From contig JAIXRX010000035.1 of assembly GCA_027485005.1 (NCBI GenBank), positions 1 through 41,866 of the forward strand: a stretch of 41,866 bases of DNA, read 5' to 3'. Under the pieces are notes generated by a model that was not told where the DNA came from, did not search any database, and saw only the letters and a list, made by a program, of their open reading frames with translations. Shown here piece by piece: positions 6,061 through 37,567 of this stretch. Position 1 is the first letter of the stretch; the number at the start of each line of letters is the position of its first letter. The DNA comes from Alphaproteobacteria bacterium (GTDB lineage Bacteria > Pseudomonadota > Alphaproteobacteria > Rickettsiales > JAIXRX01). The position numbers and the translations under genes are program-made.

Positions 6061-6064
6061 AATT

Positions 6065-20341: not shown

Positions 20342-20374
20342 ATCTTTGTTCCTTTATCGGTAAGTTTAGTTTGT

Positions 20375-20785: not shown

Positions 20786-20830
20786 ATGGCTACTCCTTTA
20801 AGAATGGTTGAGTAAGAATGGTTGAGAGAG

Positions 20831-21943
20831 TTATGCTTGCGACAGTTTCTTTGCGGTCGCCTTAAAGTCTTGAGCAGACACACCCAGCTGGTTTGCGACT
20901 GACATTTGCACGTCATCCAAGCCTGCCTGAACAGCCTCAGCAGAAGCAGTGGCGAGCTTTGTTGCTCCACCCACAACAACAGCGCCCTTGACATATTTTG
21001 CAAAGCCTTGCGGGTCTTTCTGTGCATAATCCAGCGCCCAATCCTTGTTGCCCGGCGTCACTTTGCCTGCAGCAATAGCTGCATCTACAGATGCCGTGGC
21101 CTTGGCAAGGCTGGTTTCACCTTCGACGGCCGCCACACGCTCTTGCAGCGCCTGCACTTCTTCGATAGGCACATATTTGGTTGGATCAGGGCGAGTTGCT
21201 GATGCGGTGGCTTTAGCGCTAGCCTTCATTTTACTGGCCACCTCTTTCTTAATTTCACCAGCAATATATCCATCAACTGCCTCAACGATTGCCTCAGGCG
21301 TTGCTGCATCAGCTGGTGCATCTACTGCTTCTTTTACGGCATCTACCGAGCCTTTAAGCGTCGTTACAGCCGCAATAATTGCATCATCAGATACCGCAGA
21401 TGAACCCTCTGCCGCCGCGAGGCCCAGCAGAGCAATAAGTTGTGCCTTCAAATCTTCCATGTTGTTCTCCGATTGGTTGGTTAAAAAAGTGTTTCGAGCA
21501 GATGCCACGGCTGGCATCTCGAAATTGGGGTCATTGGTGAGACTGATACGATCAATACGCGTCACCTGGCCTTGTTTAGTGTGCCAGAAGGTGGGCGAAA
21601 TGTAGCGGTATTCCTTGTTTTTAAGCTGTTCCAGTGCGGGCGGCGTCCATTCTACCTGCGCCCAGACACTTCCATCTTCTCGCGCTTCCAACGCCTTTAC
21701 CCAGCCTGCCGCACGGCGCTCGACGCCAGGGGCGGCAACGTCGGTGACGTGATCGCGGTCAACAGCCATTTGCACCAACGGACGCAGGGAGGCCGCCACT
21801 ACCGCCTTGGCATCGCTCAGGTGATATGGCCCACGGCCGTCTTTCCCGACAGTGGTGCCAGCCGGAAAAACCTTAATCCACCCATCGGATGCACCGACAG
21901 GCAGAAGAACAGAAGCAATGGTTTTGGTCGTGGAATGTGTCAT
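20831..21943 (-). CDS. Head maturation protease / scaffold (Mu gpI-like)
   Basis: The N-terminal Mu-I features (FPAGTTVGKDGRGPYHL, ISPTF, SLTNDPNF) are followed by an Ala-rich helical scaffold-like C-terminus. Confidence 0.85.
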   Translation of the reverse strand: MTHSTTKTIASVLLPVGASDGWIKVFPAGTTVGKDGRGPYHLSDAKAVVAASLRPLVQMAVDRDHVTDVAAPGVERRAAGWVKALEAREDGSVWAQVEWTPPALEQLKNKEYRYISPTFWHTKQGQVTRIDRISLTNDPNFEMPAVASARNTFLTNQSENNMEDLKAQLIALLGLAAAEGSSAVSDDAIIAAVTTLKGSVDAVKEAVDAPADAATPEAIVEAVDGYIAGEIKKEVASKMKASAKATASATRPDPTKYVPIEEVQALQERVAAVEGETSLAKATASVDAAIAAGKVTPGNKDWALDYAQKDPQGFAKYVKGAVVVGGATKLATASAEAVQAGLDDVQMSVANQLGVSAQDFKATAKKLSQA

Positions 21944-21978
21944 GCCGCCTAATTTAGGGGGGCTTAAGACACTTGGGC

Positions 21979-21998
21979 ATTGTAGCTATAACTACAAT
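21979..21998 (-). promoter_or_regulatory. Late-promoter activator dyad ATTGTAG-N6-CTACAAT (P_I candidate)
   Basis: The 7-bp arms are perfect, and the dyad is followed by GCC and then exactly 32 nt to the gpI ATG. The same element with the same geometry occurs at 29092-29111. Confidence 0.6.
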
Positions 21999-22219
21999 GG
22001 ATAGAGATGCGGCAGGATTCGGTTTTCACGCGCACGCGGCATGGGCGTACTTACCCGCACATACTTAACCCCGCAATAAGGCCATTTAATGCGATTCAAT
22101 TTTAGCCATCTAACCCTTTTGCACCCCCATATAGCTACACACCCTAAGATGGCGCTAAAAGTGCCCTTAAAATCGCTTTGCCCTAAAAGTTGATTTTGGG
22201 GTCGAATCAGGCTATATTG

Positions 22220-22266
22220 AAAAACAGATGACTGACTGGCTGACACCCCAACCTCCAAGGTCATCT
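22220..22266 (-). terminator. Candidate terminator after gene F
   Basis: On the minus strand, AGATGAC (22266-22260) pairs with GTCATCT (22232-22226) and is followed by GTTTTTC. The loop is 27 nt, so the terminator is weak. Confidence 0.35.
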
Positions 22267-22301
22267 CAATGCAGTCAGGTGGGATGTGTCGTGACTGCTT
22301 T

Positions 22302-23558
22302 TTATTCCTCCTCTGTCCGTCGATACACCATAGAGCCTTGGCGCTGCTTCTGGAGGTATCCTTTTTTGGTTTGAAATGTGGTGACGCCAGCCCAGCCATC
22401 TTTGCCCGTTTCAAACGCCACCAGCGCTTGCTGCTTGTCGTCACCAACCTGCAATCTGGTCAGATAGCGGCGGCGTAAAACTTTACGGCCGTCACTTAGC
22501 ATTTCCCAATATTCCCATATCTCATCCGGTTTCTTTAGAGCGGCCGCCAGGAGTAAAAGATATTTATGGCGATTGCTCTTTTGCACCTTCCAATTACCCT
22601 GGGCATTTTTGAAAAGGGAATCAGAGATCACCAGATTCTCACCAGCGACATCCGTAAATATCTTGCTCTTGCCGATCTCCGCATCAAACTCTTTCAGGAA
22701 GCGATTGACATACTCAGGGTCACTCAGTCCATCTGGCAGGATCATGTTGGTGGCGGCTGGGCGCATACGGGGCATAGGCACCTTTGCGGCTGGCCCTTGG
22801 TATGGAACGCCAAGCGGCGCATCGAGCGGTGGTGGCGTCAGTGCCTTCATACGAGCGCGGCCTGCGTTGTAATTAAAACCGGGAGTTATACCTTGCGGCA
22901 CAGTCATGGTTTCGCCCGTGCGCGAATTAAAATAGCGGCGAGGCATCCCCACAGGGGAGTGCACACTGACGCTTAAGCCTAATCGCTTCACATCATCTTC
23001 GGTCAATTGTTGCACCCAGCAGCGACAGCCCCAACCATTTGGCGGATAGTGTTCATCCCAGAACGGATGATCGACAGGCAAGACAGTATTGTGCCAGGCG
23101 CGGTGTTCGGGTCGGGTGGCACCATCCATCACAGCAACATAGCGTAGATATGGAAACGCTTTCTTTGTGCGCTGAATTCCTTCCCAGCGTCCAGCTGCAT
23201 AGCTGGTACGCATGTTGGTTTCAAAGATAGTTTTGAGACGGCGCGGACTGCCGAGCTGGACTTCCTTTTCCTTGCCCGTCTGCGGATCAATCATGTTTTT
23301 ACGGCCCCACCATCCTTTTTCCTGTAAGATGGGAGTGAGCTTCTTTTGGAAATCCGCCAGCGTTTCGCCGTTAGCGATAGCATCATCCATCGCAGCCCGG
23401 ATATCCTGCAGCACATCCTGCTTGGTGGCCTTAGCTACGGTGAATGAATAGGCATGAACTTCGCCCATCATCTCCCGATGATCAAAGGTTTCCTGGTAGC
23501 CTTTCTTGCGGAAGAAATCGATAGCCTGCTCTGGTGGGAGTGCGCGTAGCTCGGCCAT
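22302..23558 (-). CDS. Head morphogenesis protein (Mu gpF / SPP1 gp7 family)
   Basis: The MuF signature is present (RPEHRAWHNTVLPVDHPFWDEHYPPNGWGCRCWV). Confidence 0.9.
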   Translation of the reverse strand: MAELRALPPEQAIDFFRKKGYQETFDHREMMGEVHAYSFTVAKATKQDVLQDIRAAMDDAIANGETLADFQKKLTPILQEKGWWGRKNMIDPQTGKEKEVQLGSPRRLKTIFETNMRTSYAAGRWEGIQRTKKAFPYLRYVAVMDGATRPEHRAWHNTVLPVDHPFWDEHYPPNGWGCRCWVQQLTEDDVKRLGLSVSVHSPVGMPRRYFNSRTGETMTVPQGITPGFNYNAGRARMKALTPPPLDAPLGVPYQGPAAKVPMPRMRPAATNMILPDGLSDPEYVNRFLKEFDAEIGKSKIFTDVAGENLVISDSLFKNAQGNWKVQKSNRHKYLLLLAAALKKPDEIWEYWEMLSDGRKVLRRRYLTRLQVGDDKQQALVAFETGKDGWAGVTTFQTKKGYLQKQRQGSMVYRRTEEE

Positions 23559-25129
23559 TAATCCAGCTTCACATTAAAGTTTCCTGCAAGGCGTGCCGCC
23601 AACATGGTCTTTTCCAATGCTGCAGCCATCTCCTTATCGCCCGTCTTGCTGGCCACGGCGAGCAAACGGTCGCTTAGTTCATCGAAGTTCTTTGCGCCAT
23701 TTACAGCCTCTTCAATCTCGCGTTGAAGGGGAGTTAAAATCTCCTCCCAACCATCGGCCATTTCATCTGCAAGCTTCTCAATGGCATCAGGCTTGGCGGG
23801 TTTTGCTGCCGCCGTAGCCAAGTGGTGCTGGCATCCTGCCGGGCAAGCTGCTGAATGCTGGGCGCTCATCATAGCCGGAACGGCAGGAACAGCTGGAGCT
23901 AAAACTTCCTCACCGTCCTCTGCCATCGGCAAGCCCAGCTTATCGCCTGCACGCTTGGCGCTGACTTTGCCGCCCAGGTTCACAAAGGTTTGTAGAGAAG
24001 CGCCATAAGCCGCGCTGTCCACGGATTCTGGGCGGCGAATGCGTACACGCGGATATTTTTTCTGTTCACCAAAATTGATATCCACCAGCGGGCGCACCAG
24101 CTGAGTGTTGAGGGTAGCGGCAAGGCTGGCCGCATCATCATCCGCAATATCTCCACGCACAGCATTGTGCGATTGATTCCCGGCCAGCCCTCCACCAGAC
24201 AGGCTGTCGGTCGTGGTGGTTTGCCCCAGCACTGCCTTGCTGATCTGCTCGTCACAGTAACGCGCAAGGCGCTCGAATAAGTCTACGCTGCCCGTTGGGT
24301 TTGCATCCTTCACGAATTCAATCACCATGCTGTCCGGGATGATGGCACCAGCATCGCTACCGAGGTTTGCGACCGCCCGGAGCAGCACCTGACGATCAGC
24401 CTCAGAAGCGCCAGCGCCGTATTTACCAACCCGCAATGGCTGGCCGTAGGTTTCCGCAAAGATTACCCAATCGCGGACGCTGAAATTCTTGTAAAGCCAG
24501 AACCAGCTCACCGGGCGGATCACGCCAGCTCGGATAGGAAGGCCGGATTTTGCTTTCACCTGGTGAACGATGTATTTGTATGGCGTCAAAGGTTCAGGCT
24601 GCCCACCTTCACCGCGTAAATGCAAAGTACGGCCGTCATGTCGGTCAAACATAAACCAGCGTGGATCGCGCCACTCAATACGCTCAATCGTCCAGCGAGT
24701 CGCCGTTTGGTTCCAGATAATCTCCGAAACGGAGAAGCCTTTGCCAACCGCGTCCATAATATCGAATAGGTCGCTACGCAATTCATCACGTTCAAACCAA
24801 TCGCGCACGAGCTGTGCAGCTTCCTGATCAGCAGTATCCTCGGAGGCAGCTTCAACCGTAATTTCCAACCCGGTCACGGCGCGCTTACGCTGAGCCAGCA
24901 CGCCCGCATAATGAGGGTCTTTCTCCTCGATCTGCTCGGCCAGCTCCAGATAGGCCATAGTATCGCCTTCGTCAGCGAGGCGCATCCAGCTGGCTAGCGT
25001 TTGCGGATATAGGCCTGCACTGGAGTAACTGTGCCGCACGTTACGCACGGATGTCATCGATGGGAGAACCTTTTCTTCCAGCAAATCTTCACGCAGTAGC
25101 GGGTTTCCATATTGATCAAGCAAGGCCAT
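23558..25129 (-). CDS. Portal protein (Mu gp29/gpH-like, DUF935)
   Basis: It is 523 aa and lies between the large terminase and F, in Mu synteny. Confidence 0.85.
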   Translation of the reverse strand: MALLDQYGNPLLREDLLEEKVLPSMTSVRNVRHSYSSAGLYPQTLASWMRLADEGDTMAYLELAEQIEEKDPHYAGVLAQRKRAVTGLEITVEAASEDTADQEAAQLVRDWFERDELRSDLFDIMDAVGKGFSVSEIIWNQTATRWTIERIEWRDPRWFMFDRHDGRTLHLRGEGGQPEPLTPYKYIVHQVKAKSGLPIRAGVIRPVSWFWLYKNFSVRDWVIFAETYGQPLRVGKYGAGASEADRQVLLRAVANLGSDAGAIIPDSMVIEFVKDANPTGSVDLFERLARYCDEQISKAVLGQTTTTDSLSGGGLAGNQSHNAVRGDIADDDAASLAATLNTQLVRPLVDINFGEQKKYPRVRIRRPESVDSAAYGASLQTFVNLGGKVSAKRAGDKLGLPMAEDGEEVLAPAVPAVPAMMSAQHSAACPAGCQHHLATAAAKPAKPDAIEKLADEMADGWEEILTPLQREIEEAVNGAKNFDELSDRLLAVASKTGDKEMAAALEKTMLAARLAGNFNVKLD

Positions 25130-25138
25130 CGGTTACTC

Positions 25139-26716
25139 CTACCATGTTACCCCGCGTGCCATATGGCCGCTGGTGGGGGTTTCGTCATTATCATAATCAT
25201 CCGCATGCATTTGCATCACGCCGCGTTTCTGAGCACTTGAGTTGCTAACTGGTTCATAGCCAAATTCGACTAAATCCTGCAGGGTTGCCCAATAGGCCAT
25301 CACACAAGCAATCAATCCATCACCGTGACGCTTCTTGCCGTCTTTGCCTGTGGTGCGCTTATCAGGCACCTGTGGTATGCCGCGCACCAGCTCCACCACG
25401 CGGTGATCGGCTAATATGTCGGCATCCGCTGGCAGTATGATGGTGCTGTCTTCAAGCGCGGCTTTATAACGAGGAAGCGCATTCAGATACCATTGCGCCG
25501 TGGCCATGATCTGGTAGATGCGATTAGGGCCATATTTTTGCATGGTTTCTTCGGCCAGTTGTGAGCCGTTCCCTCGTGCATCAAAAGCGGCCGCATTAAA
25601 GCGCGGGAGGCGGTCAATGATATACCAGACGATTTGTTTCTGTTGAGCGAAGGGTACGTTGTGCAGCTCCACGATAAATGGCACCCGCCGTATCAGGTTC
25701 GGTTGCAGCTGCAGCGGCACCAGCACGGTGAGGTCTCCGCTGCGCCCAAAATCTTCACCAAGAAAGTGGCGTAGTGCAGGACTCAGCGCTGACAATAAAG
25801 GCTTGAGGTTCTCTTCACACCATTCGGTAATGGTGCGCTCACGCTCAAACTCAGCTTTAAACACAAACTCTTTATCGCAGGAAAAGCGCAGAACAGGCGC
25901 TTGCACCATGCAGCGTTCGACGAGTGCGCCGGGCAGGTATTTGCCGCCGCCCATGCGTGGTTGACAAAAAAGCTCCTCATCCGCTGCATCATCATAATCA
26001 TTGATCAATCCTTGACGCCACTCGGCTTCGGCCTCGGCTGACCACTCTTTCCCATTACGCAAACAGATGCGTTTATAAAGACCGTCGGCCAAGGCATCAT
26101 CAAGATCAATACGCAGCAGGGCATATTTCAAACGCCCCTTGCGGATGTCCTGAACATACTCATTAAACTGATTATCCACGCCATTGTGCGTTGAAATAAC
26201 CATCACCTTACCGCCCCACATCAGCAAAGCCAGAGCGGCTTTCATCAGCTCCTTGAGATTGTCATGGAAAGCGGCTTCATCAATAATCACATAACCTTGG
26301 CGGCCACGCAGCGAGCGAGGGCGGCTAGTGAGCGCCACAATATCATAGCCACTATCGAAGGTGATACGGAACGCCTTAATCTCTTTTGTGTCATCACCCA
26401 CGCCATCATTAAATACAAACTCTTCAACAGCAGCTGCTGCATGGCTAAAGTGCTTGGCCCATTCAGCACAGGTATCAATAAACTCACGGGTCATATCCAG
26501 CGCATAGCCGATATAAAAAACATCCATACCGCCTGCAGCGCGGTTAGCTGCTGCCGTCAAAACAGCATCAGCAGCAATGGCCCAGGTCAAACCGATACGG
26601 CGGGATTTCTCCACAAAAGCAACCGATGCCGTGGTATGCAACTGCATGGCACGTTTCTGGTAGCCAAAAAAAACATCGGGTAGGTTGGCGATTTCTGATG
26701 GAACGTAATAGTTCAT
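25139..26716 (-). CDS. Terminase large subunit (Mu gp28-like)
   Basis: It is 525 aa with a Walker-B-like GYVIIDEAAFH and a C-terminal nuclease-like region. It lies upstream of the portal gene. Confidence 0.85.
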   Translation of the reverse strand: MNYYVPSEIANLPDVFFGYQKRAMQLHTTASVAFVEKSRRIGLTWAIAADAVLTAAANRAAGGMDVFYIGYALDMTREFIDTCAEWAKHFSHAAAAVEEFVFNDGVGDDTKEIKAFRITFDSGYDIVALTSRPRSLRGRQGYVIIDEAAFHDNLKELMKAALALLMWGGKVMVISTHNGVDNQFNEYVQDIRKGRLKYALLRIDLDDALADGLYKRICLRNGKEWSAEAEAEWRQGLINDYDDAADEELFCQPRMGGGKYLPGALVERCMVQAPVLRFSCDKEFVFKAEFERERTITEWCEENLKPLLSALSPALRHFLGEDFGRSGDLTVLVPLQLQPNLIRRVPFIVELHNVPFAQQKQIVWYIIDRLPRFNAAAFDARGNGSQLAEETMQKYGPNRIYQIMATAQWYLNALPRYKAALEDSTIILPADADILADHRVVELVRGIPQVPDKRTTGKDGKKRHGDGLIACVMAYWATLQDLVEFGYEPVSNSSAQKRGVMQMHADDYDNDETPTSGHMARGVTW

Positions 26717-26874
26717 TGAATCGTCTCCTCTTCAAGTGGAGGCGACAGAGCATAGCTTTCATATTCTACAGCGCGGGCAATACGCTGTTCAACGGTGGCA
26801 TTAGGCAGGTCAAGGCACGCCAGCTTCAAAAACTGAACACGCAGCCAAGCCAGTTCATTGCTATGTTCATCCAT
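26713..26874 (-). CDS. Unlisted 53-aa ORF (MDEHSNELAWLRVQFLKLACLDLPNATVEQRIARAVEYESYALSPPLEEETIQ)
   Basis: Its ATG lies 1 nt after the gp27-like stop (TGATATG), and its TGA overlaps the terminase ATG (ATGA). It exactly fills an otherwise non-coding 159-bp gap. It is below the 60-aa cut-off of the ORF track. Confidence 0.6.
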   Translation of the reverse strand: MDEHSNELAWLRVQFLKLACLDLPNATVEQRIARAVEYESYALSPPLEEETIQ

Positions 26875-26875
26875 A

Positions 26876-27442
26876 TCAGACTACCCCTAAGATGCTGGCT
26901 TTGATCGCCTGAATCGTATCAGTAGAAAGCCCTCGTTTTTTAGCGGCCGCCACCGCAGTGTCCGCAGCCTTCTTAGTTGTTTCTTTACGCTCTAATTCGC
27001 GTATCTCGGCAATCTGCTGATCAAAGTCTGATTTGCTGGCCTTCGCGGCCTTTTCTAAAGCGGTGGCTAGGAACATAATGTCTTTCGCATCAAACTTCAC
27101 TTCGTTGCCGTCATCATCAAGGGCCGTGCTTGCCCGCAGAATCATATCTTGCAGCAGCTCCAGATTCATGCGCACCACATCGCTGGCTTGCTTATCGCCT
27201 AAATTGCGGGTTATCGCCTCGGCAATCTGGCGGCTTTCACGGATACGCGCCGTGATCTGTTCAGTCTTTTTAATATGTCGGCCGATGGCTGAACGCGACG
27301 GCACTTCATCCACGGTTAATAGGCTGTTTAATGCCTCTATAATTTGATCAATCGTATGCCCAGCGTCACGCAATGCGCCGATCTTCTCGCGCACTGATTT
27401 TGGCAGTCGGTCAATTGTGCTTGGGCGATTACGGGGAGCCAT
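26876..27442 (-). CDS. Mu gp27-like protein (DUF3486), putative terminase small subunit
   Basis: The N-terminus (PRNRPSTIDRLPKSVREKIGALRDAGHTIDQI) and a helical C-terminal part fit the family. The gene lies upstream of the large terminase. Confidence 0.75.
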   Translation of the reverse strand: MAPRNRPSTIDRLPKSVREKIGALRDAGHTIDQIIEALNSLLTVDEVPSRSAIGRHIKKTEQITARIRESRQIAEAITRNLGDKQASDVVRMNLELLQDMILRASTALDDDGNEVKFDAKDIMFLATALEKAAKASKSDFDQQIAEIRELERKETTKKAADTAVAAAKKRGLSTDTIQAIKASILGVV

Positions 27443-27443
27443 A

Positions 27444-27740
27444 TCAACCCCCTATGCCTGGCTTTTTAACTCCAGCCGCTTCTTCACGTCCTTCTGCTAC
27501 ATCAACACCACGCTGGGTGATATTAACGATCTGGATATGTTCTAACCATTCATCAGTGCATAAACCGCTGGCCACCAGAAAGCGGATATCTTCACGGATA
27601 GTAGCGCGGGATTGGCGACGATGGCCGATGCTTTCCAATGCCGTGTGCAACACAGAATCATTAGCCGATCCACCTGTTTCGGCCAGAATGCGGAGGATGC
27701 AAAGACGGCGGTCAGCGGCCAGATGTTCTTTGAAATTCAT
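27444..27740 (-). CDS. Small winged-helix-like protein (Mu gp26 position)
   Basis: It is 98 aa with a wHTH-like segment (RLCILRILAETGGSANDSVLHTALESIG). Confidence 0.5.
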   Translation of the reverse strand: MNFKEHLAADRRLCILRILAETGGSANDSVLHTALESIGHRRQSRATIREDIRFLVASGLCTDEWLEHIQIVNITQRGVDVAEGREEAAGVKKPGIGG

Positions 27741-28042
27741 CGACCTGCTCCCTTAATGAGAAATTCTTCAATGCGATCCAGTTGGGTCTGCACGCGTTGA
27801 ACCGTCTCCTCAACCCGACGCACATGTCCTTTGGTTTCCGCCCCTTGCAATACCAAGAGATGGTGGTCATGCAGGGTTGGAAGATTGCTCAAAGCAACCT
27901 CGGCCGCCGCCACTCGTTTCTCAAGCGAAAGATGATCTTCCTTGGTTGTGAAGCGGGTTTTGATGCTCCACCAAATCCATGCCACCAACCCGGTAAACAC
28001 CCATTGAATTACATTGCGCCAGTCATTCAGAGTTTCTAACAC
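27737..28042 (-). CDS. Mu gp25-like membrane protein (DUF2730)
   Basis: It has an N-terminal TM segment (VIQWVFTGLVAWIWW) plus a coiled-coil region, and sits just after the spanins as in Mu. Confidence 0.65.
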   Translation of the reverse strand: MLETLNDWRNVIQWVFTGLVAWIWWSIKTRFTTKEDHLSLEKRVAAAEVALSNLPTLHDHHLLVLQGAETKGHVRRVEETVQRVQTQLDRIEEFLIKGAGR

Positions 28043-28490
28043 GGCGTTCCTCCTGTAAGATTTTTTGTAATGCTTTTACTTTTTCAGGGCAGCGCTTGAG
28101 GGCGGTGCGGACGGCGAGATAATCCGGTTCAGATTCTCGCTTAAGTCTGGCTCGTGCTCCATCAGCCACGCCGGAATTTCCGGCAGTGGCGGACATTGGT
28201 AACGGACAGCTGGCGCTGACGAGCAACTCGACAGAGCCATCAGTAAGACCACGGGCAATATGAGATGTTTCGGATTCGGCATGGCGGATATCCTTCAAGC
28301 TGGCTGTTTCGATTTCATGAATGGATCCGCCCAGGGCAGCGGTATCTTTATGCGCGCTTGAAACGGCAGTCGCATCTTGAGCGCTACGCTCTGCATCGGA
28401 CGCCTTGCGCTCCAATCCCTGCCAGTAAGTGGCGACACCAAAACCAAAAACAAAACCCAAGGCAAAGGCGATTAAATATCGTGCAAGCAT
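28023..28490 (-). CDS. i-spanin (Rz-like)
   Basis: It has an N-terminal TM anchor (YLIAFALGFVFGFGVATYW) and a helical periplasmic domain. It follows the endolysin gene and contains an embedded lipoprotein ORF. Confidence 0.75.
   Translation of the reverse strand: MLARYLIAFALGFVFGFGVATYWQGLERKASDAERSAQDATAVSSAHKDTAALGGSIHEIETASLKDIRHAESETSHIARGLTDGSVELLVSASCPLPMSATAGNSGVADGARARLKRESEPDYLAVRTALKRCPEKVKALQKILQEERRVRNSE
28076..28282 (-). CDS. o-spanin (Rz1-like lipoprotein), fully embedded in the i-spanin gene in another frame
   Basis: It has a signal peptide with lipobox LMALSS|C, and the mature part is short and Pro-rich (CPPLPEIPAWL...SPSAPPSS). Confidence 0.75.
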   Translation of the reverse strand: MPNPKHLILPVVLLMALSSCSSAPAVRYQCPPLPEIPAWLMEHEPDLSENLNRIISPSAPPSSAALKK

Positions 28491-29056
28491 ATGCGAACCT
28501 CCACTTTGCGGCGGTTTATCAGCCCTTTGCTAATTCTTTTGTTGCGGGCGGGCACAGCACATTGACCAGTGGTATCGCCTTTTCCCTTGGGTGCTACCTC
28601 GCATATCCATCGGTTCATCTGCATGCAGGCAGCTTCATATTGCCCCTGGTTAAGCAGGCGAATAAGGGTGGAGGTTTGCATTGCGCCTATGCCCACGTTG
28701 TACGCCCAACTGATAATGGCAGCCTTCATCGTTTCAGGGATTGGCACTTTGACAGCGCGCTCAACCGCTCGCTTAAATACACCCAAATCACCATTAAGCA
28801 GCTTGTCGCATTCTGGCTGTGTCAGCGTCTGACCTGGACGAGCGGTGGCGGTATGCCCATAGCAGATTGTATCAATGCTGGCCGTGTCTTTGTAGGTGGA
28901 GAGACTCAAACCCTCCAGCGTCATCAGCATAGCCAGTGCTATACCTGCAGCGCTACCTCCTGAAAGCATGGCCACAGACAGCGATACTTTCCCCGCGCAG
29001 CAATGAAAGAGCTGACGGCATAATTGGAGAAATTTAAAAGCATTTACATGTGGCAT
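28472..29056 (-). CDS. Endolysin, T4-lysozyme-like (GH24) with SAR-type N-terminal domain
   Basis: The catalytic context LEGLSLSTYKDTASIDTICYGHT (E-D-T) is preceded by a weakly hydrophobic Gly/Ala-rich segment (LSGGSAAGIALAMLM). Confidence 0.85.
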   Translation of the reverse strand: MPHVNAFKFLQLCRQLFHCCAGKVSLSVAMLSGGSAAGIALAMLMTLEGLSLSTYKDTASIDTICYGHTATARPGQTLTQPECDKLLNGDLGVFKRAVERAVKVPIPETMKAAIISWAYNVGIGAMQTSTLIRLLNQGQYEAACMQMNRWICEVAPKGKGDTTGQCAVPARNKRISKGLINRRKVEVRICLHDI

Positions 29057-29091
29057 AAACGCGATGTTACGCGCTCACGCGAAGGCATGGC

Positions 29092-29111
29092 ATTGTAGCG
29101 GTAGCTACAAT
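29092..29111 (-). promoter_or_regulatory. Late-promoter activator dyad ATTGTAG-N6-CTACAAT (P_lys candidate)
   Basis: The 7-bp arms are perfect, and the dyad is followed by GCC and then exactly 32 nt to the endolysin ATG. It lies in the 81-bp gap right after the Mor-like gene. Confidence 0.6.
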
Positions 29112-29137
29112 TTCAATAATAACAGGGGCGGGTTATT

Positions 29138-29512
29138 CTAAAACAGATCGTATTGATCTTTAGCAGCGGAGGCTTTTATGACCCGATAAACCACGCTACG
29201 GTCGGTGCCGATGATACGAGCAATCCGGTTAATCGGCACCCCATCATTATACATACGCAGAATGCGGGCATTGCGGCTGGGCCGCACTGGCACGGTCATC
29301 ACCATACCACCCCATATATCAGACAAGCGCTTTGCCGCCTCTAGGCCAATGCAATACGCAATTGGGCCGCTCTCTGTTGCCCGCAGCGGGATAGAAATAG
29401 CTGCCCCACCAAAATCGACTGACAGCTGCTCGAGCGCATCGTCACCGATCAACATACGCAGTCCATCGGTGGTTGGATTATCTGGTAAATCAAGGTGATC
29501 GTAATCAGCCAT
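29138..29512 (-). CDS. Mor/C-family transcriptional activator
   Basis: The C-terminal HTH (RNARILRMYNDGVPINRIARIIGTDRSVVYRVIK) is characteristic of Mu Mor/C. I chose the start at 29512, 1 nt after the preceding stop. Confidence 0.85.
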   Translation of the reverse strand: MADYDHLDLPDNPTTDGLRMLIGDDALEQLSVDFGGAAISIPLRATESGPIAYCIGLEAAKRLSDIWGGMVMTVPVRPSRNARILRMYNDGVPINRIARIIGTDRSVVYRVIKASAAKDQYDLF

Positions 29513-29513
29513 C

Positions 29514-30203
29514 TTAGTTACCTGCAGCCATTTGTGCACGGCATTGAACGCCGAGGTCTTCGATGGTTTTATCCAGGTCAGCTATATCCATAAATTCTGG
29601 TTGAAAATCTATCGCCTTACCAAGCAAGCGATATTGCGCATAGATTGTCGCTGCCTTTGCCGCGATAGCGCCGTAACTCACATCAGCTGGGCGGCTGTCA
29701 ATACCACGCATCACGCGGGCGCGCATAACGGTATCAATCATGGCAGCATCTGGATTCATCCAGCCGATACGGTTTAGCCAGCCCAGCAACCCACGGATAA
29801 CGGCATCAATTTGATGGCTGCGCATCCATTGTATTTTTTCTACCTTTGCCATGCGTAAGCAATAGGCCTCCAGATTTTTCTCAGAGCCGTCATGAATAGC
29901 GCCAAGGTGGTAAAGGTTCAACCAAAGCGCCCGCACCCGTTTGATCTGTGGATCGTTTGGCAAAAGACGCGGCCCGGCGCGGAAGGTGGTTGTTTTGAAA
30001 CCGAGGCGTTCAAACTCTTTGAGCACCGCTTCCAGTTCTGCGCCGGACATATCCTTGGTGCTTTCTTTCCCGGTGATGCGCACCAGCAAGGCACGATAGC
30101 TTTCATCCACCATGCAAAGCTTTGATTTGCCAATGTGGATTTTAGCAATCATGCTTTTGCGATTGCTATCGGAAGCCGCGCCGAAACTCATCACCTTTCC
30201 CAT
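29514..30203 (-). CDS. GemA-like protein (Mu gp16, DUF1018)
   Basis: The sequence IAKIHIGKSKLCMVDESYRALLVRITGKESTKDMSGAELEAVLKEFERLGF is typical of DUF1018. Confidence 0.75.
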   Translation of the reverse strand: MGKVMSFGAASDSNRKSMIAKIHIGKSKLCMVDESYRALLVRITGKESTKDMSGAELEAVLKEFERLGFKTTTFRAGPRLLPNDPQIKRVRALWLNLYHLGAIHDGSEKNLEAYCLRMAKVEKIQWMRSHQIDAVIRGLLGWLNRIGWMNPDAAMIDTVMRARVMRGIDSRPADVSYGAIAAKAATIYAQYRLLGKAIDFQPEFMDIADLDKTIEDLGVQCRAQMAAGN

Positions 30204-30204
30204 T

Positions 30205-30804
30205 TTACACCGCCGCAAAATCTAGAGTGATGGAGTTCCAAGGGGACAGCAGATTAGTGCGGCGATAGAACCGCACATATTGCTTGGTAGATACCACGCG
30301 CATCGAATCATTGATCGCCTGCATGGCCTGCGTCCACTGCTCGTCCTTGATATCCAAGCGGCGTAGACCGAGAATGTTGCCACGATTGACGCGGCCTTCT
30401 TTGTCTACCGCAAAGGCATGATTGACGATGGTGAGGATGGTGGGATTGACACCGCCGCTGTGAGCTTTGATGCATTCGTCAATCAGCCCCTTGGCTATTT
30501 GCAGCTCAGGGCCAAAAGCGATTCCGTCTGCTACCTGCACCTGCACTTTACTCAGGCCATCGTAGGATTGCAGAGTGAGGTTGCCTTTTTTGCCACCCTT
30601 AAGCAGCCCGTATTTTTCAGACAGCAATGCTAAAAAGGCGTCAATGTCATCAAATGCGGCCGCCTTGAAATAGGTAAGTTCGGCATTGAGCTTGGTGGCC
30701 TGACCAAACAGCTGCGCCACAAGCTGGTCTTCCAGCTTGTGCTCCGGCTTCACCATTTCTACTGGTACCAGATGGCCTTTATCGTTTGTCATATGTGTTG
30801 TCAT
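30205..30804 (-). CDS. DUF3164-like Mu-early-region protein
   Basis: It is 199 aa and resembles the conserved DUF3164 family found in transposable phages. It is not Gam-like. Confidence 0.55.
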   Translation of the reverse strand: MTTHMTNDKGHLVPVEMVKPEHKLEDQLVAQLFGQATKLNAELTYFKAAAFDDIDAFLALLSEKYGLLKGGKKGNLTLQSYDGLSKVQVQVADGIAFGPELQIAKGLIDECIKAHSGGVNPTILTIVNHAFAVDKEGRVNRGNILGLRRLDIKDEQWTQAMQAINDSMRVVSTKQYVRFYRRTNLLSPWNSITLDFAAV

Positions 30805-31097
30805 GCGTTGTTCCTTTCAGTCTGGTTATTGGCTCGGCGCTGGCGCTCAAGGCGGATGTCGTACACATTTGGCCCTTCATGGATAAGAGAGGGGTCGATG
30901 TTGATTTTGCCTTCCAGCTGCTCAACCACTTTGCTGAGGTCTCCTAGGAAGGCGATGATGCCAACCCATTCATCGAGTGGGATGGACAGGTTCATCTCCT
31001 CATGTCGCAAATCTCGCGGCGGCATGTAACGGGACATGATTTGCTGGACACGCTTAATTGCGCCAGGAACGGTACGATTAGGTGATGTATTATTCAT
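30801..31097 (-). CDS. Hypothetical early protein (98 aa)
   Basis: The ORF is tightly overlapped with its neighbours in the early operon. I recognise no motif. Confidence 0.5.
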   Translation of the reverse strand: MNNTSPNRTVPGAIKRVQQIMSRYMPPRDLRHEEMNLSIPLDEWVGIIAFLGDLSKVVEQLEGKINIDPSLIHEGPNVYDIRLERQRRANNQTERNNA

Positions 31098-31470
31098 GAC
31101 GTTTCCTCCCGCAGGTGTTATGCGCGCATCGACGGCATTCCCGAAAGAGTGCGACCGCCTGGTGATTGGCTGGTGAATAGGGTGAAAGCTGATGCTTCAT
31201 GCAGATAGGCCCATCAATCATGCCCAAAATCGGGCACTGCACTTGCTGGGCGTTAAAGGCCGCTTCAACGCGTGCTTGAACCTGCATTAAATCGCCTGGG
31301 TAACGATTTTTAAGCACCTGATTGACCAGGCTCGCCGAGCGACCAATCTTGCGGGCGGCGTCCGCCTGCGTGTGCTGATCTGCATACTCAGCCAATCGCA
31401 TCACCCATTCAGGTAAGGTTGGCACCCAATGCTCTTTTGCCAGAGCCATGGCGCTTACAACTGGCTTCAT
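31090..31470 (-). CDS. HTH DNA-binding protein with Cys-rich C-terminal part
   Basis: It has an HTH (QADAARKIGRSASLVNQVLKNRY) followed by C-x10-C ... C-x2-C-x4-C. An ATGA overlap links it to the upstream gene. Confidence 0.6.
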   Translation of the reverse strand: MKPVVSAMALAKEHWVPTLPEWVMRLAEYADQHTQADAARKIGRSASLVNQVLKNRYPGDLMQVQARVEAAFNAQQVQCPILGMIDGPICMKHQLSPYSPANHQAVALFRECRRCAHNTCGRKRHE

Positions 31471-32024
31471 GCTGCACCTCCACGCCAAACTATTTTTTCG
31501 GCGTTAGGATCGAAAACCTGTTGCTTGCGTTTGTTGACCTCTGGGGCAAGCGGCCCACTGTTGCGGCCTGGCAGAAAGATATATGTGGCACCTTTGCCGG
31601 GATACGACTCCTGCGCCACCTTGATATATCCTGACAGGCGAAGGTACTTTAAATACTCTTTAGCCATTCCCAACTCACAGAATGCGACCAGCGCCACATA
31701 GCGTGCATCGAACTGCTGCGCACCGAACACTCTTAGGGCTGACCAGATGCGCTGGCGCGCAGACGGCTCCATTGGTTTTCCATCTTTGTCAATTCGCGGC
31801 GCGAGCTGACCGACATCGCGCACCAGAGTATAGACATTGGGTTCGGCGATCTTGCCGATTGTCTTTTTCTCCAGATACCCATGCTCTGCCAAGCGATCCA
31901 GATATGATCGGATGCTTGATGTTTCGTGGCCTGTGAGCACATAAATGTCTCGGCAGGTGAAGGTGCGTAGCTTGCGGATTGCAACCCACACCCCTTGTCG
32001 TGATTTAATATGACGTACCCACAT
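31467..32024 (-). CDS. Hypothetical protein with two winged-helix-like repeats
   Basis: There are two similar segments (SSIRSYLDRLAEHGYL and MAKEYLKYLRLSGYI). I chose the start at 32024, just after the MuB stop. Confidence 0.55.
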   Translation of the reverse strand: MWVRHIKSRQGVWVAIRKLRTFTCRDIYVLTGHETSSIRSYLDRLAEHGYLEKKTIGKIAEPNVYTLVRDVGQLAPRIDKDGKPMEPSARQRIWSALRVFGAQQFDARYVALVAFCELGMAKEYLKYLRLSGYIKVAQESYPGKGATYIFLPGRNSGPLAPEVNKRKQQVFDPNAEKIVWRGGAA

Positions 32025-32026
32025 GG

Positions 32027-32776
32027 CTAGAATCTCCGAGCTTGAGGTGGGGTAGCGGAATGAAGAGGGCGCTTGCCCCATTCTTTCAGACCAACTTCCG
32101 CCCACTCATGCCCTGCGGCCTCGTCATAAATACGATCTAGGTTGGTGACAATACGGCGCACGCTACCATGCGCATCGTTCACGATCTGCTCCAGAAGGTC
32201 GTCTTTGATCGTAATGGCAGGGACAAAATGCTTGGCCAGAATGCGGCCATCTTCCATATTGGCAGGCACCGCTTGCGCCCAACGTAATACGCGGCCATGG
32301 AAGCGCTCCCAGCGGCGTAGCTTTTGTGGCAAGGCCTCTTCACCGATCAACACGATGGGAGCTTTGCTTTGCTCATAAATGTCGCGCACCAGCTCCACCA
32401 GATTGCGGTCAACCAGGTTGTCGGCTTCGTCGATCAACAGCGGTCGTTGACTAAGCGCCAGTTCCTCGCTCACTTGATCTGTCATCGCTGAAATTGTCTT
32501 GGCGGGTTGGATGCCCAGCTGCAGCAGCACAGCTTCTAGGAAGGCTTTCTTTGTCCAGACACTGCGCACCTCAACATAGGTTGCGCCGTATTTAGCGGCG
32601 ACAGATGCAACAGCAGTTGATTTTCCGAAACCTGATGGGCCGCTAAATGTAACGATACCCGGAAGATGTGCCGCACGGTTTATGGTGTGGAGCAGCAGCT
32701 CGTTCAGGATGGTGATGTTGCGCAATGGCGCAATCCCGCCAGTGCTTGGATTGACCTTTTCTTTTTTTGATGTCAT
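32027..32776 (-). CDS. MuB-like AAA+ ATPase (DNA transposition protein B)
   Basis: It has Walker A (GPSGFGKST) and Walker B (LLIDEADNL) and lies directly downstream of the transposase gene. Confidence 0.85.
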   Translation of the reverse strand: MTSKKEKVNPSTGGIAPLRNITILNELLLHTINRAAHLPGIVTFSGPSGFGKSTAVASVAAKYGATYVEVRSVWTKKAFLEAVLLQLGIQPAKTISAMTDQVSEELALSQRPLLIDEADNLVDRNLVELVRDIYEQSKAPIVLIGEEALPQKLRRWERFHGRVLRWAQAVPANMEDGRILAKHFVPAITIKDDLLEQIVNDAHGSVRRIVTNLDRIYDEAAGHEWAEVGLKEWGKRPLHSATPPQARRF

Positions 32777-32801
32777 AATGTGCTCTCTCTGTTGAAGTTA
32801 A

Positions 32802-34937
32802 TTACATGGGTGGGACATCCAGCGTTGCATCGCTGGGTGTTTCATTCAGCAGCATCTCTGCTGCTGGAGCGGCGGTTAGTTCATCCGCATCTATTTCTTC
32901 TGGCCACCACGCACGGTCGCTGACACGGCCAATCCACTTACGATCACGGTCGCTAATGCCTTCGCCACGGGCCACACTGGCAGCAATGGCGCGCACGCGC
33001 TTGGCCCATAACTCACGGTCACTAAACGCCACCTCTTGATCATGCACGGTGGCTTGGCGGGCGGGCTTTTGAAGTGGCAATATTTCTACGGCACGGGATG
33101 CTTCATCCATTGCATGGGTGCTGAACTCTTCCACGCGCTGCGGGAATGACAGCACCTTGGTGTCAGCGTGTAGCGCCAGCAACCCATCGGCCAGTTCCTT
33201 TTTGTTCAATCCACGGCGGATACGGTTCAGCTCTTTCTTGCTTTCGCTGATCAGATTGGCCTGCGCCGCTTTTAGCTGCGCAGCGAACTGCATCGGATCG
33301 ATACCAATGGTTTGCGGGTTAATCGCCTCAAACAGGTAATTGCTGTTTTCATCGAAAGCATAGACCCGGCCAAGGTCAGCCGGGTCATGCCGCACCAGCA
33401 CGTCTTTCCCAATATACGGGAGCAACGCTTCGCTGATGTAAGACAGGCCATCCACGCGGATGCCTGATTTCGTAATGCGGCGCATGCCACCGCCTGCCGC
33501 GATAGGGGCAAGCAGCAGATCAAGGGCGCGCTCGCTAGCGGGTTTTTGTACTGGATGCGGCCATTGCGCGGCGCGCTCATTGGGTGACATCTTCAAGGCG
33601 GAATGCACCGCATTGCCATATTTACCAGCTGCCCAACTATCGAGAGCAACTTGCAATTCTTGAGCGGTCATGCCCACTGAGAATGCAGCAGCATCGCTCT
33701 CACCCATGCGGGACGCGAAGTCTTTTTGCTCACGGATACGTTGGCGGTGCGCCACGCTATGGCCAGAGAAACCCGGCAGGATGGCCATCAGGTCGCGCTG
33801 CATGGTGCCAATCACGCGCTCAACAAATGGCTTTTTCTCTGGCGAGTATGGCGGTGAAATCTCTTGCAAAATGCCCACGCCAGCCAGTGCCATTGTAAAG
33901 CGGCGGCTCACAAAGTCAGCGCCATTATCGGTCTTGATCGTTTCTGGTTTGCCCCATGCCATAATGGCCTTACGCACCAGCAGCAGGGAAGCCTCGGTTT
34001 TCGCGGTCTTGCTCACACTAAACATGGCGCGGCGGCTCCATACGTCGATCAGCGCATAAATGCTGTAACGGCCATCGCTGCAAATCGCATCGGCGGGCGA
34101 GGCATCGATCTGCCACATCTGGTTGAGGCCAGTGATATGTGCATCTGCATCACCCACGGCCACCTTGTGGGTGTTTTTGTATTGCCCAGGTGAAGTCACA
34201 GCCATGAACAGTGCGCTGTTCTCCTGTTTCCATTCCACGATATGGCGCTCAAAGGCGCGCAAGGATGGCAGCGGGAAACACCGCCCATTAACATCCAGCA
34301 TCGTACCAAACTTCATGCGCACAAAATCGCGCAGATGCCCGCCTTTATAATCGCGGTTATCAGTCAGCAGGGCAGCAACATACTTGGCCACAGCACCACC
34401 GCAGGCGCGGCTTAATATGCTGGTGCCTTTACGTTTGCCATAGCGACCGCCCAGCAACTCTGGCTGCGTGGTGGCGGCTTTGCACCAGCGGTGCAGCGTG
34501 CGGGTGCAAAGCTCCGGCACCACACAATAAGGCATTTTATGAGGTGTCATAGCGCGTTCCACGCGGTACTGCGCAAGAAATATCTCCGCACCATGATGGG
34601 TCGATATCCCATTCAGGCGGCAGAAATTTTGGTAGCTTGTCACAATCATAAGCTTGGCCAACTGGCGGCCTTGCTGGCCGTTTGGCTTTGTTTCTTCAAG
34701 CTGCACTGCCGCCATTTGAAGCTTCGGCGTTTCCGCCGCCACCTTTTGCAAAATGGCATGCTGCAATTTTGCAGGCAACATGGTCAGCGGATAGATACGG
34801 CCACCGCCTTTGCCTTCACGTTTAATAGATGGCCAGCCTTCTTTTTTGGCGCGGATGTTTATCCTTTGCTCTGTACCTGGCAAAACATCTAGATTTAACC
34901 CAGCTAACTCTCGTGCGGTGTAGTGCTCCCTGATCAT
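32802..34937 (-). CDS. Mu-type DDE transposase A
   Basis: It has an N-terminal Mu-like DNA-binding domain (YTARELAGL) and a DDE core (WQIDASPAD, IKTDNGADF, PFVERVIGT). I chose the start at 34937 (SD GGGGAG, ATGA overlap with the upstream ORF). Confidence 0.9.
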   Translation of the reverse strand: MIREHYTARELAGLNLDVLPGTEQRINIRAKKEGWPSIKREGKGGGRIYPLTMLPAKLQHAILQKVAAETPKLQMAAVQLEETKPNGQQGRQLAKLMIVTSYQNFCRLNGISTHHGAEIFLAQYRVERAMTPHKMPYCVVPELCTRTLHRWCKAATTQPELLGGRYGKRKGTSILSRACGGAVAKYVAALLTDNRDYKGGHLRDFVRMKFGTMLDVNGRCFPLPSLRAFERHIVEWKQENSALFMAVTSPGQYKNTHKVAVGDADAHITGLNQMWQIDASPADAICSDGRYSIYALIDVWSRRAMFSVSKTAKTEASLLLVRKAIMAWGKPETIKTDNGADFVSRRFTMALAGVGILQEISPPYSPEKKPFVERVIGTMQRDLMAILPGFSGHSVAHRQRIREQKDFASRMGESDAAAFSVGMTAQELQVALDSWAAGKYGNAVHSALKMSPNERAAQWPHPVQKPASERALDLLLAPIAAGGGMRRITKSGIRVDGLSYISEALLPYIGKDVLVRHDPADLGRVYAFDENSNYLFEAINPQTIGIDPMQFAAQLKAAQANLISESKKELNRIRRGLNKKELADGLLALHADTKVLSFPQRVEEFSTHAMDEASRAVEILPLQKPARQATVHDQEVAFSDRELWAKRVRAIAASVARGEGISDRDRKWIGRVSDRAWWPEEIDADELTAAPAAEMLLNETPSDATLDVPPM

Positions 34938-35116
34938 GAGCGCTCCCCATGTGTTTTGGCAGCGCGCAAGTCCTGCAAGCGGGCATAGGTGCTTTCCACG
35001 CAGCCATCGCAAATATGGAAAGACGCAGCGCTCTTAAATAAAAACTCCACCTCTGAATAAGGTTTATGGCAGCACGAGCAGCCGGGAGGGGTGGCAGGAA
35101 GAGGCATGTTAATCAT
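34934..35116 (-). CDS. Stand-alone ClpX-type C4 zinc-finger protein (60 aa)
   Basis: CSCC-x19-CDGC with ...SEVEFLF...FHICDGCVE parallels the ClpX N-domain (CSFCGKSQHEV...VYICDECVD). A strong SD (GGAGG) is present, and its stop overlaps the transposase start. Confidence 0.7.
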   Translation of the reverse strand: MINMPLPATPPGCSCCHKPYSEVEFLFKSAASFHICDGCVESTYARLQDLRAAKTHGERS

Positions 35117-35600
35117 GTTGCACCTCCACTACAAAACGGCTGGCCTCTGCGCATTTTTGCAGGGCGGCATCCATACTGCCAGCATACCAGAGGGTTTGCT
35201 GCGCGAGGCGGTCATATATTTCCCAGGCAGTACCAGCGCCCTGAGCTGCCCGCTTATTGCGGCGTATCAATGTCGGGGGAGTATTCCCGCCTGACGCTTG
35301 GGAAGGAAGGCGCTGAATCATCACTTCCAGCTTTTTCACACGGTCTTCAAGACCAACTTTTTCACGCATTAAAGCCGCCGTATCCTCAACGCTTTTTAGG
35401 CGCTCGGTCAGTGCAATCAGATCATACTGTGCATCGTCTGGTTTATTGTCGATCAACTCATCCAGCATCGATTGAAGCTGAACGCCTCGGTTATCCTGAT
35501 CCAATACAGCACGCGCCAGCACATGGTTGGTGCGTTGATATTTGTTCAGCTCATTTTGAAAGAGCGAAAGTTGTTGCCCATAGGCGCTATCCTTTTTCAT
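35109..35600 (-). CDS. Hypothetical coiled-coil early protein (163 aa)
   Basis: It has SD GGAGGG and a TAATG overlap with the upstream ORF. Its composition is helical and heptad-like. I recognise no motif. Confidence 0.55.
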   Translation of the reverse strand: MKKDSAYGQQLSLFQNELNKYQRTNHVLARAVLDQDNRGVQLQSMLDELIDNKPDDAQYDLIALTERLKSVEDTAALMREKVGLEDRVKKLEVMIQRLPSQASGGNTPPTLIRRNKRAAQGAGTAWEIYDRLAQQTLWYAGSMDAALQKCAEASRFVVEVQHD

Positions 35601-35884
35601 TACACCCTCCGGTCTTCTTCCATGGCCACCCACTTGCCATAGCCAGTCATGGCCACAGGCACGGCGGCCAGAATCAATGTGGTTAAAACGATGATTAAAG
35701 CCGCATTGAAGGCCTTGCTCGCCAACAGGCGCTGCATGGTGCGCTCACGCTTTAAGGCGCGGCACTCAATGTGGCGTTTGGTGATTGTCGGTGTGGCGAG
35801 CCTGCAAGCCGCCACACCGTCTCCCCACGCTTGGAGGGCACTGTCAGGGTGGGTGGGGAGAAACTGGATGCAATGGCGGTTCAT
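35600..35884 (-). CDS. Hypothetical small protein with C-terminal TM segment
   Basis: It is 94 aa with a TM segment (FNAALIIVLTTLILAAVPVAM) and overlaps the ner stop. Confidence 0.45.
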   Translation of the reverse strand: MNRHCIQFLPTHPDSALQAWGDGVAACRLATPTITKRHIECRALKRERTMQRLLASKAFNAALIIVLTTLILAAVPVAMTGYGKWVAMEEDRRV

Positions 35885-36189
35885 GCCGCACCTCGCGCAT
35901 TTAATTTTTGGGATTGTGTTTGGCGGCTTATTGTTCTAGCTTTGCGCGCAGTTCTTGTGCCAATGCGCTGACCCTGCTTGTCATACCAAGCAGGCCAGAG
36001 GCTGTGCAGCGAGACACCAAGGAATTTAGCAATTGCATGTTGAGCCGCAGGAAAAGGTGTAGTCATTGCAATGTGACATGCGTCTTTGCAAAGCCCTGCA
36101 TCAATTGCTATTGCGCGCATAGTAGTACCGCGTTTGCGAACTGCGGCCTTGATGTCTTCCCTATGCCAGCCTTTTTTGTTTTGTGACAT
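35881..36189 (-). CDS. ner: Ner-like early transcriptional regulator
   Basis: GWHREDIKAAVRKRGTTMRAIAIDAGL...HAIAKFLGVSLHSLWPAWY closely parallels the Mu Ner/Nlp signature. The SD is GGAGAG. Confidence 0.85.
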   Translation of the reverse strand: MSQNKKGWHREDIKAAVRKRGTTMRAIAIDAGLCKDACHIAMTTPFPAAQHAIAKFLGVSLHSLWPAWYDKQGQRIGTRTARKARTISRQTQSQKLNARGAA

Positions 36190-36380
36190 GAACTCTCCAT
36201 TATGACGGGTTACAGCCCGTTTTTTTGGCGTTGTTGAATTAAGCTAACTAAATGTGTGTTCGCACAATAAAGCGGATATAGCAACATTAAAAAGCGATGT
36301 TTTGCGAATGTCCGTTTTTTTATACGAATTGATGTGACTTTTCGGACACGCCCTGATAGAGGGCGGGCAAAGTATTGGAT
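36190..36380. promoter_or_regulatory. Divergent repressor/early control region (operators, Pe/Pc; probable transposition enhancer by analogy to Mu)
   Basis: This AT-rich 190-bp gap lies between the divergent ner and repressor genes. It contains the inverted repeats TGTG-N4-CACA and AACAT-N10-ATGTT and a hairpin plus T7 run at 36205-36227. Confidence 0.5.
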
Positions 36381-37175: not shown

Positions 37176-37199
37176 ATTGCCATCTAAGAGTTCAAGTTA

Positions 37200-37215
37200 G
37201 TGTTTTGCAAAACAC
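37200..37215. repeat. Perfect 16-bp palindrome GTGTTTTGCAAAACAC
   Basis: The sequence is fully self-complementary and lies 25 nt after the repressor stop. Confidence 0.6.
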
Positions 37216-37300
37216 CATAATGCAGACAATAATTATTATATTACTGTGCGTTACATAACTTGAACGCTATCGTGTAACTTGAACGCCAAACGACCCAAAA

Positions 37301-37322
37301 ACACGACACTTAGTTTGTCATG
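37301..37322 (+). repeat. Internal copy of the end-repeat (candidate L3 site), same orientation as the right-end sites
   Basis: In ACACGACACTTAGTTTGTCATG, 37301-37319 is 19/19 identical to 5165-5183, and 37304-37322 is 19/19 identical to 5146-5164. Confidence 0.7.
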
Positions 37323-37567
37323 TTGCTTTGCGCCACTCGCGCCGTAACGCGCAGCAATGCTTGCCTTACGGCACCGCACGCGCCGCGCACGCCCTTATGG
37401 GGCAATCTCTTCTATATTGCTTAAAGCCGCCTTCAAAGTGTCGTGTTGGGTTACACTTGGCCGCGCTGTGTTTTGATGGTGTCACGACACGCCTACGCCA
37501 GGCTCACCGCCGCTGTGCTATCCCATTATATCCCACTTAATACCGCACTATCCCGCCTTGGCTTTAG

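Follow-up and report, generated by a model that had tools for sequence, protein, structure and literature searches.

Two perfect copies of a 20-bp dyad, ATTGTAG-N6-CTACAAT, in the Mu-like prophage of an alphaproteobacterium that is uncultured and has a small genome are probably the operators of a single activator of the Mor/C family, encoded at 29138-29512, and would define two activator-dependent late promoters, one ahead of the lysis genes and the other ahead of the head genes. A preliminary description of the sequence had put the dyads forward as a candidate Mor/C operator of the late promoters, and this proposal is now supported by comparison, that is, by the dyads of related prophages, by the placement of the two sites and by the published geometry of the Mu promoters. 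We infer binding, activation and transcription start sites by analogy with phage Mu.

Gene content of the prophage

The window, by which we mean the whole analysed stretch of 41,866 nucleotides, carries a Mu-like prophage on the minus strand. Its landmarks are the following:

36375-37175, plus strand: c-type repressor gene
35881-36189, minus strand: ner-like gene
32802-35012, minus strand: transposase A gene
32027-32776, minus strand: B-like ATPase gene
Between the B-like ATPase gene and the 124-aa helix-turn-helix gene, minus strand: DUF3164 and GemA genes
29138-29512, minus strand: Mor/C-family activator gene, 124 aa from ATG 29512 (phrog_836)
28472-29056, minus strand: endolysin gene (Phage_lysozyme, Pfam 4.9e-35), its ATG 7 nt past a -10-like hexamer
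After the lysozyme gene, minus strand, in this order: Rz, DUF2730 gene, gp27-like gene, large terminase, Mu portal
22302-23558, minus strand: F with a C-terminal PBECR2 domain
20831-21943, minus strand: Mu-like I protease/scaffold gene (Pfam Mu-like_Pro, 1.8e-65), ATG 21943 being the first start codon of the ORF
After the I protease gene, minus strand: major head protein T, then tail genes
5201-5944, minus strand: terminal DNA methyltransferase gene

An Rfam scan of 19000-37500 returned no RNA family, and blastn of the region against a phage collection gave no match. The nuclease domain at the C-terminus of the F-like head-morphogenesis protein (window 22302-23558) belongs to the PBECR2 type (Barnase/EndoU/colicin E5-D/RelE-like); the F-like protein of the related prophage in genome G798 (L079 1611-2867) ends in the same domain.

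Two copies of one dyad

The dyads and the elements that accompany them are:

29092-29111, minus strand: dyad copy 1, ATTGTAG-CTACCG-CTACAAT, putative binding site of the activator at the late promoter for lysis and packaging (P_lys analogue)
29087-29091, minus strand: GCC(AT), conserved flank and poor -35-like region, directly 3' of the right arm of copy 1
29064-29069, minus strand: -10-like hexamer TAACAT, starting 32.5 nt from the centre of copy 1
21979-21998, minus strand: dyad copy 2, ATTGTAG-TTATAG-CTACAAT, putative operator at the late promoter of the head genes and probably of the tail genes (P_I analogue)
21951-21956, minus strand: -10-like hexamer TAAATT, starting 32.5 nt from the centre of copy 2

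Read from the window sequence on the minus strand, copy 1 with its trailing GCC occupies 29111-29089 and copy 2, likewise followed by GCC, 21998-21976; neither arm carries a mismatch in either copy. This reading reproduces both the coordinates and the perfect arms given in the preliminary description. The Mor-like gene and the lysozyme gene are 81 bp apart (29057-29137), and copy 1 is located in this gap, 26 nt past the mor stop, much as the targets of Mor and C in Mu follow the genes of these activators. The gene layout bears out the earlier placement directly after the only Mor/C-family gene. Copy 2 lies at the 3' end of the 358-bp gap 21944-22301, and the gene that it precedes, previously called a protease/scaffold gene, is identified as such by its Pfam Mu-like_Pro match. 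The two copies have a common frame, in which the dyad is followed by GCC, 19 nt, a hexamer of the form nAnnnT, 7 nt and an ATG; the distance from dyad centre to ATG (29056 and 21943, respectively) is 45.5 nt in both.

A pattern search of the window with up to two mismatches returned these two copies as its sole matches, where 0.20 matches would be expected from shuffled sequence and 2 of 100 shuffles reached two. At three mismatches five additional matches appear, all of them within coding sequence, so that no further late-promoter dyad is found outside coding sequence in the window at up to three mismatches. The whole source assembly (1.58 Mb in 220 contigs, about 75% complete) contains no copy beyond the two at up to one mismatch, which upholds the earlier statement that there is no third copy.

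One symmetric two-mismatch variant of the core, TGCAG-GTAGCA-CTGCA at 6901-6916, is centred 43.5 nt before ATG 6865, where the gene that follows the tail fibre gene begins. Considered as a third late promoter, it was judged a chance occurrence, since it lacks a -10-like hexamer at the required distance, the gene downstream of it carries an ordinary ribosome-binding site (AGGA), and a sequence the size of the window should contain some 40 5-N6-5 dyads of this kind at random. The terminal methyltransferase gene occupies the position of Mu mom, and the 120-bp gap before it (5945-6064) holds two imperfect palindromes and no copy of the dyad. Late regulation of this gene, if there is any, is not exerted through the dyad operator.

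The gap that ends in copy 2 has several features of its own. On the minus strand after F (22205-22301) there is a hairpin, AGAUGAC...GUCAUCU at about 22266-22220, followed by GUUUUUC, which is plausibly the terminator of the lys-F operon, upstream of copy 2; its folding energy is no better than that of shuffles (z = -0.6). The stretch 21999-22301 includes several TTAGGG-like units and no recognisable gene, and a 151-aa ORF at 21992-22447, which has neither a Pfam nor a PHROG match, runs through the dyad. Mu has gene G and a strong gyrase site in this position between F and I, whereas the window has the 358-bp gap without a recognisable gene.

The candidate activator protein

The Mor/C-like gene is the last of the early operon and begins 1 nt past the GemA stop; its ORF is open from GTG 29539. 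The product of 29138-29512 matches phrog_836, "late transcriptional activator", with E=1.2e-11, while its score against the Pfam Mor family (PF08765) narrowly misses the cut-off of 24.9 bits, with 24.2 bits for a 133-aa form and 24.6 bits for the 124-aa form. Its homologues, of which a profile search of the full library collected 1,462, do match PF08765 in 60 of 73 aligned cases. Aligned by hhalign, the family profile reaches 89.8% to Mu C and 80.5% to Mu Mor, the C-terminal Q-x-D-L-F tail being common to the activator and Mu C in the profile alignment, and the same profile finds PDB chains named "Late transcription activator C" with E=0.004-0.009. Membership of the protein in the Mor/C family is thus supported at the level of profiles.

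Pairwise comparison by BLASTP gave no significant match of the activator to either Mu Mor or Mu C. The Mor-type fold combines an N-terminal domain for dimerisation with a C-terminal helix-turn-helix, the two being linked by a beta-strand. An AF2 monomer model of the window protein (pLDDT 73.5, medium confidence) consists of helices, two short strands and a C-terminal helix-turn-helix, and a Foldseek search of the PDB with this medium-confidence model returned generic helix-turn-helix domains alone (E>0.1), neither Mor nor C among them. Like other PF08765/phrog_836 activators, the protein is small, has a C-terminal helix-turn-helix and is encoded after gemA and before lys; unlike them, it is very divergent. 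Single-sequence searches for close Mor relatives in genome, viral and protein collections found nothing beyond the protein itself, and across all collections searched only two Mor proteins are at least 50% identical to it. The assembly shows no other detectable gene of the Mor/C family, which leaves 29138-29512 as the only plausible one.

Private dyads in related prophages

The preliminary description had proposed a search for the same dyad before the lys and I homologues of related prophages. This search was positive in a stronger form, as relatives carry dyads of their own, which differ in sequence but occupy the same two positions and keep the register. The closest case is L085, a viral contig whose Mor is 54% identical: the core TGTAG-N6-CTACAATGCC is kept in the same register, the left arm overlaps the mor stop codon, and the dyad is followed by 19 nt, TAAATT, cgcgttt and ATG. 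Its recognition helix, DRSTIYRII, is similar to that of the window protein, DRSVVYRVI. In L010/G054 (Mor 52% identical), where the helix reads SRPYIRSVI, the dyad is GTGGAA-N6-TTCCAC, with TGCC after it, and the frame is exactly that of the window. L086 (Mor 40% identical) has ACGGG-N6-CCCGT directly after the stop, with TAGCCT in register and an ATG 6 nt on. Among these sequences, the dyad is thus one that varies by lineage, the same where the helix is similar (L085) and different where the helix is different (L010).

Other relatives repeat their dyad. In G287, ATGCGGA-ACTGGT-TCCGCAT occurs exactly twice in 6.0 Mb, once after mor and once 8.6 kb downstream, after an F-like gene; both copies are followed by 22 nt and TAAGGT, the second precedes unidentified ORFs, and the two messages of this prophage would have leaders. 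In G798, TGCTGA-AGGATT-TCAGCA is found after mor and again 11.6 kb downstream, between the F gene with PBECR2 and an I gene of the Mu-like_Pro type, with 45.5 nt separating the dyad centre from the I ATG. Together with the window, these make three prophages in which the prophage's own dyad is repeated at the lysis and head positions. L088 and L089, Mu-like viral contigs at a greater distance, whose Mor proteins are 25-27% identical, each have CTGAAC-NN-GTTCAG twice, about 6.9 kb apart. These copies, at 10993 and 17949 in L088 and at 7398 and 14177 in L089, are each preceded by a hairpin resembling a terminator; at the second copy, TAGATT starts 32.5 nt from the centre, and the gene there has a leader and an AGGAGG site. 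Additional copies of the dyad of G278 fall in GC-rich coding sequence and were set aside as uninformative.

Two cases count against the reading of the dyads as operators of the Mor/C-family activator. G456 has two Mor-like loci or prophages, L028 (contig C89) and L038 (contig C49), both in the same frame and with near-identical core promoters and first codons. Their palindromes differ, ACCCCAACACCTGTTGGGGT versus CTAAACAATTGTTTAG, at 2 of 5 half-site positions, beside recognition helices that are only one or two residues apart. In G054, the second copy of the dyad (L006 1501-1518; G054:C294:1596-1613), a perfect 10-N6-10 palindrome, is found at the right end of the prophage and not ahead of a late operon: the stop of a terminal DNA methyltransferase gene is 22 bp upstream of it, and a tRNA gene lies at a distance of about 190 bp. 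Near 5201, the corresponding place in the window, there is no such copy.

These observations bear on the question of which protein reads the dyads. A palindrome alone names no protein, and the prophage encodes several more helix-turn-helix proteins, so that a different regulator, be it a repressor, a gp26-like winged-helix protein, c or Ner, or another phage or host protein, might be considered in place of the Mor/C-family activator, with the imperfect matching of helix and site in the G456 pair in its favour. Such a regulator is nevertheless improbable. In at least nine prophages, about 0-30 nt separate the dyad from the mor stop (in G456, some 120 nt), the dyad changes with the Mor recognition helix in the comparison of L085 and L010 above, and a search of the early control region near c and ner (35.9-36.4 kb) found no copy of it. 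In addition, a site just upstream of a poor -35 has the geometry of an activator site, not that of a repressor site.

The downstream dyad has its limits in the family. A dyad of this kind is missing downstream of numerous Mor homologues at a greater distance, which also counts against the operator reading, and most phylum-level Mor matches lack it as well, often facing a convergent gene; the layout is therefore not universal in the Mor family.

A rigid frame of the proposed promoters

When the dyads are aligned, the nAnnnT hexamer is in the same register at 12 of 13 sites, and an ATG follows it by 6-7 nt at 10 of the 13. GCC comes directly after the right arm at both window sites and in L085, L010, L028 and L038. 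As a control for this layout, all oriented perfect 6-N6-6 dyads in the 352 kb of loci that were fetched, 458 in number, were scored. Of these, 33 had nAnnnT in register and 21 an ATG 6-7 nt later; the 7 that combined the two features were without exception located downstream of a mor homologue or ahead of I. As judged from these loci, the succession of dyad, hexamer and ATG is specific to the context of the mor and I promoters.

The sequences where a -35 would be expected are GCCATG at copy 1 and GCCCAA at copy 2, so that both sites combine a recognisable -10 with the lack of a usable -35 hexamer, as is characteristic of a Mor/C-dependent promoter. Upstream of copy 1 there is an A/T-rich stretch. 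When the transcription start is estimated from the -10-like hexamer, the dyad centre is predicted at about -44.5 +/- 1.

A different promoter could be read into the same sequence, as the right arm contains TACAAT, which matches TATAAT at 5 of 6 positions. Taken as the -10 of a constitutive or differently regulated promoter, with the symmetry incidental, it would place a start about 7 nt downstream and give a leader of 25-30 nt with the AGG before I. This is the least credible of the readings considered: no -35-like hexamer is present 16-18 nt upstream, and the right arms of the relatives are not -10-like (TTCCACT, TCCGCAT, TCAGCA, CCCGT), while it is the hexamer 22 nt downstream that is conserved. 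A consensus promoter scan calls neither dyad site, as is expected if the promoters are activator-dependent.

The dyads could also act as RNA, as hairpins in read-through transcripts that serve as terminators, processing sites or stabilisers at the ends of the early and the lys-F operons. Both copies do fold into hairpins of 8-9 bp (z about -3.2 to -3.4, folding energy about -10.5 kcal/mol), there are predicted terminators in Mu that overlap with Pm and Plys, and the dyad of L029 is followed by a T6 run. In the window, by contrast, no U-tract follows either copy (GCCAUGCC and GCCCAAGU, respectively); the hairpins are A/U-rich and absent from the terminator scan, and thus do not look like intrinsic terminators. 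A separate hairpin with GUUUUUC is already present after F (about 22266-22220). This reading also leaves unexplained why unrelated dyads keep a constant 32.5 nt to nAnnnT with an ATG 6-7 nt on, and we regard it as very unlikely.

With the dyads read as operators of activator-dependent promoters, the start codons fall at the expected transcription start, and the lys and I messages are therefore predicted to be leaderless or nearly so. No Shine-Dalgarno sequence is found before the endolysin ATG 29056, and the endolysin frame is open from its post-hexamer ATG in the window, L085 and L010.

Comparison with the promoters of phage Mu

The Mor site of Mu Pm consists of two 5-bp inverted repeats with a hexanucleotide spacer, a 16-bp element which is centred at -43.5 and replaces the -35 (PMC4390567). 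The C site is similarly a 16-bp imperfect dyad centred at -43.5, and the Mu late promoters, in which a -10 is present and a -35 absent, require the bases immediately downstream of the dyad for activation (PMC2582627). In a 2025 preprint on the Mor and C activation complexes, the dyad is again found just upstream of a non-optimal -35 (10.1101/2025.05.02.651988). The claim of the preliminary description that Mor/C dyad sites adjoin the -35 region agrees with this literature. The window sites fit the published geometry in their symmetry, N6 spacing and conserved flank, and in their position next to a poor -35 with a recognisable -10 (PMC4390567, PMC2582627).

Copy 1 resembles Mu Pm in its location, since in both cases the early operon ends with the activator gene and the operator follows that gene immediately, and in its inverted repeats with a 6-bp spacer, missing -35 and recognisable -10 (PMC4390567); the A/T-rich stretch upstream is like the proximal UP subsite of Mu. 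In contrast to Pm, the arms of the window dyad are perfect and longer (7 bp, with the 5-bp core common to L085), the promoter would drive the lysis genes directly and not a second activator gene, and the start codon lies at the predicted transcription start. The distance from the dyad centre to the -10 is 32.5 bp in the window versus 30.5 bp in Pm, the latter value coming from our own reading of Pm (AGTAA-agccgg-TTAAT, with TATCCT 30.5 bp away) and not from a published coordinate.

With regard to the late promoters, the two window sites take the same positions as the C-dependent Plys and PI of Mu, ahead of the genes for endolysin and for the I protease; this correspondence, already drawn in the preliminary description, holds against the annotated Mu promoters. 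Also as in Plys and PI, there is a -10 without a -35, and bases downstream of the dyad matter (PMC2582627, PMC4461284). Mu differs in having four late promoters and a separate activator C, where two sites and one activator were found in the window. The Mu dyads are imperfect, and the Mu lys and I messages have leaders and annotated ribosome-binding sites. A search of the Plys and PI regions of Mu for 5-N6-5 dyads with up to one mismatch found none, so that this search did not locate the C sites of Mu from sequence alone.

A model of late regulation

On the model of Mu, the activator would be produced from the last gene of the early operon. As a dimer or a larger oligomer, it would bind the core TGTAG-N6-CTACA with two helix-turn-helix motifs in adjacent major grooves. 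The operator would be situated just upstream of a non-functional -35 region, and the bound activator would bring the sigma-70-type RNA polymerase of the host to the -10-like hexamer 32.5 bp from the dyad centre. The predicted start of transcription coincides with the ATG of lys and of I, or precedes it by 1-2 nt. One of the two promoters would serve the lysis/packaging operon from lys to F and the other the head operon from I onward, probably including the tail genes. As a separate middle operon is absent and a single activator is present, this would amount to a two-tier cascade, early and then late.

The comparison with relatives suggests a wider, more tentative model, which we consider possible though somewhat short of an even chance. 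Alphaproteobacterial Mu-like prophages may keep a rigid frame (dyad centre, 32.5 bp, -10-like hexamer, 6-7 nt, ATG) into which private operators are set. The result would be orthogonal pairs of activator and operator, without cross-activation between co-resident prophages such as those of G456, and leaderless late messages in many lineages, that of the window included.

Implications

For phage biology in general, the finding confirms a known type of switch and is not a surprise. Its added value lies in the rigid late-promoter frame that is kept in divergent Mu-like prophages while the operator sequence is exchanged within it. Natural pairs of activator and operator of this kind could be of use in work on DNA recognition by Mor/C proteins, and possibly also as orthogonal switches. 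For the Mu-like prophage of this uncultured, small-genome alphaproteobacterium, the analysis provides a proposed regulatory map of one activator, two operators and two late operons, and the Mor/C promoter design of coliphage Mu would extend to very divergent relatives.
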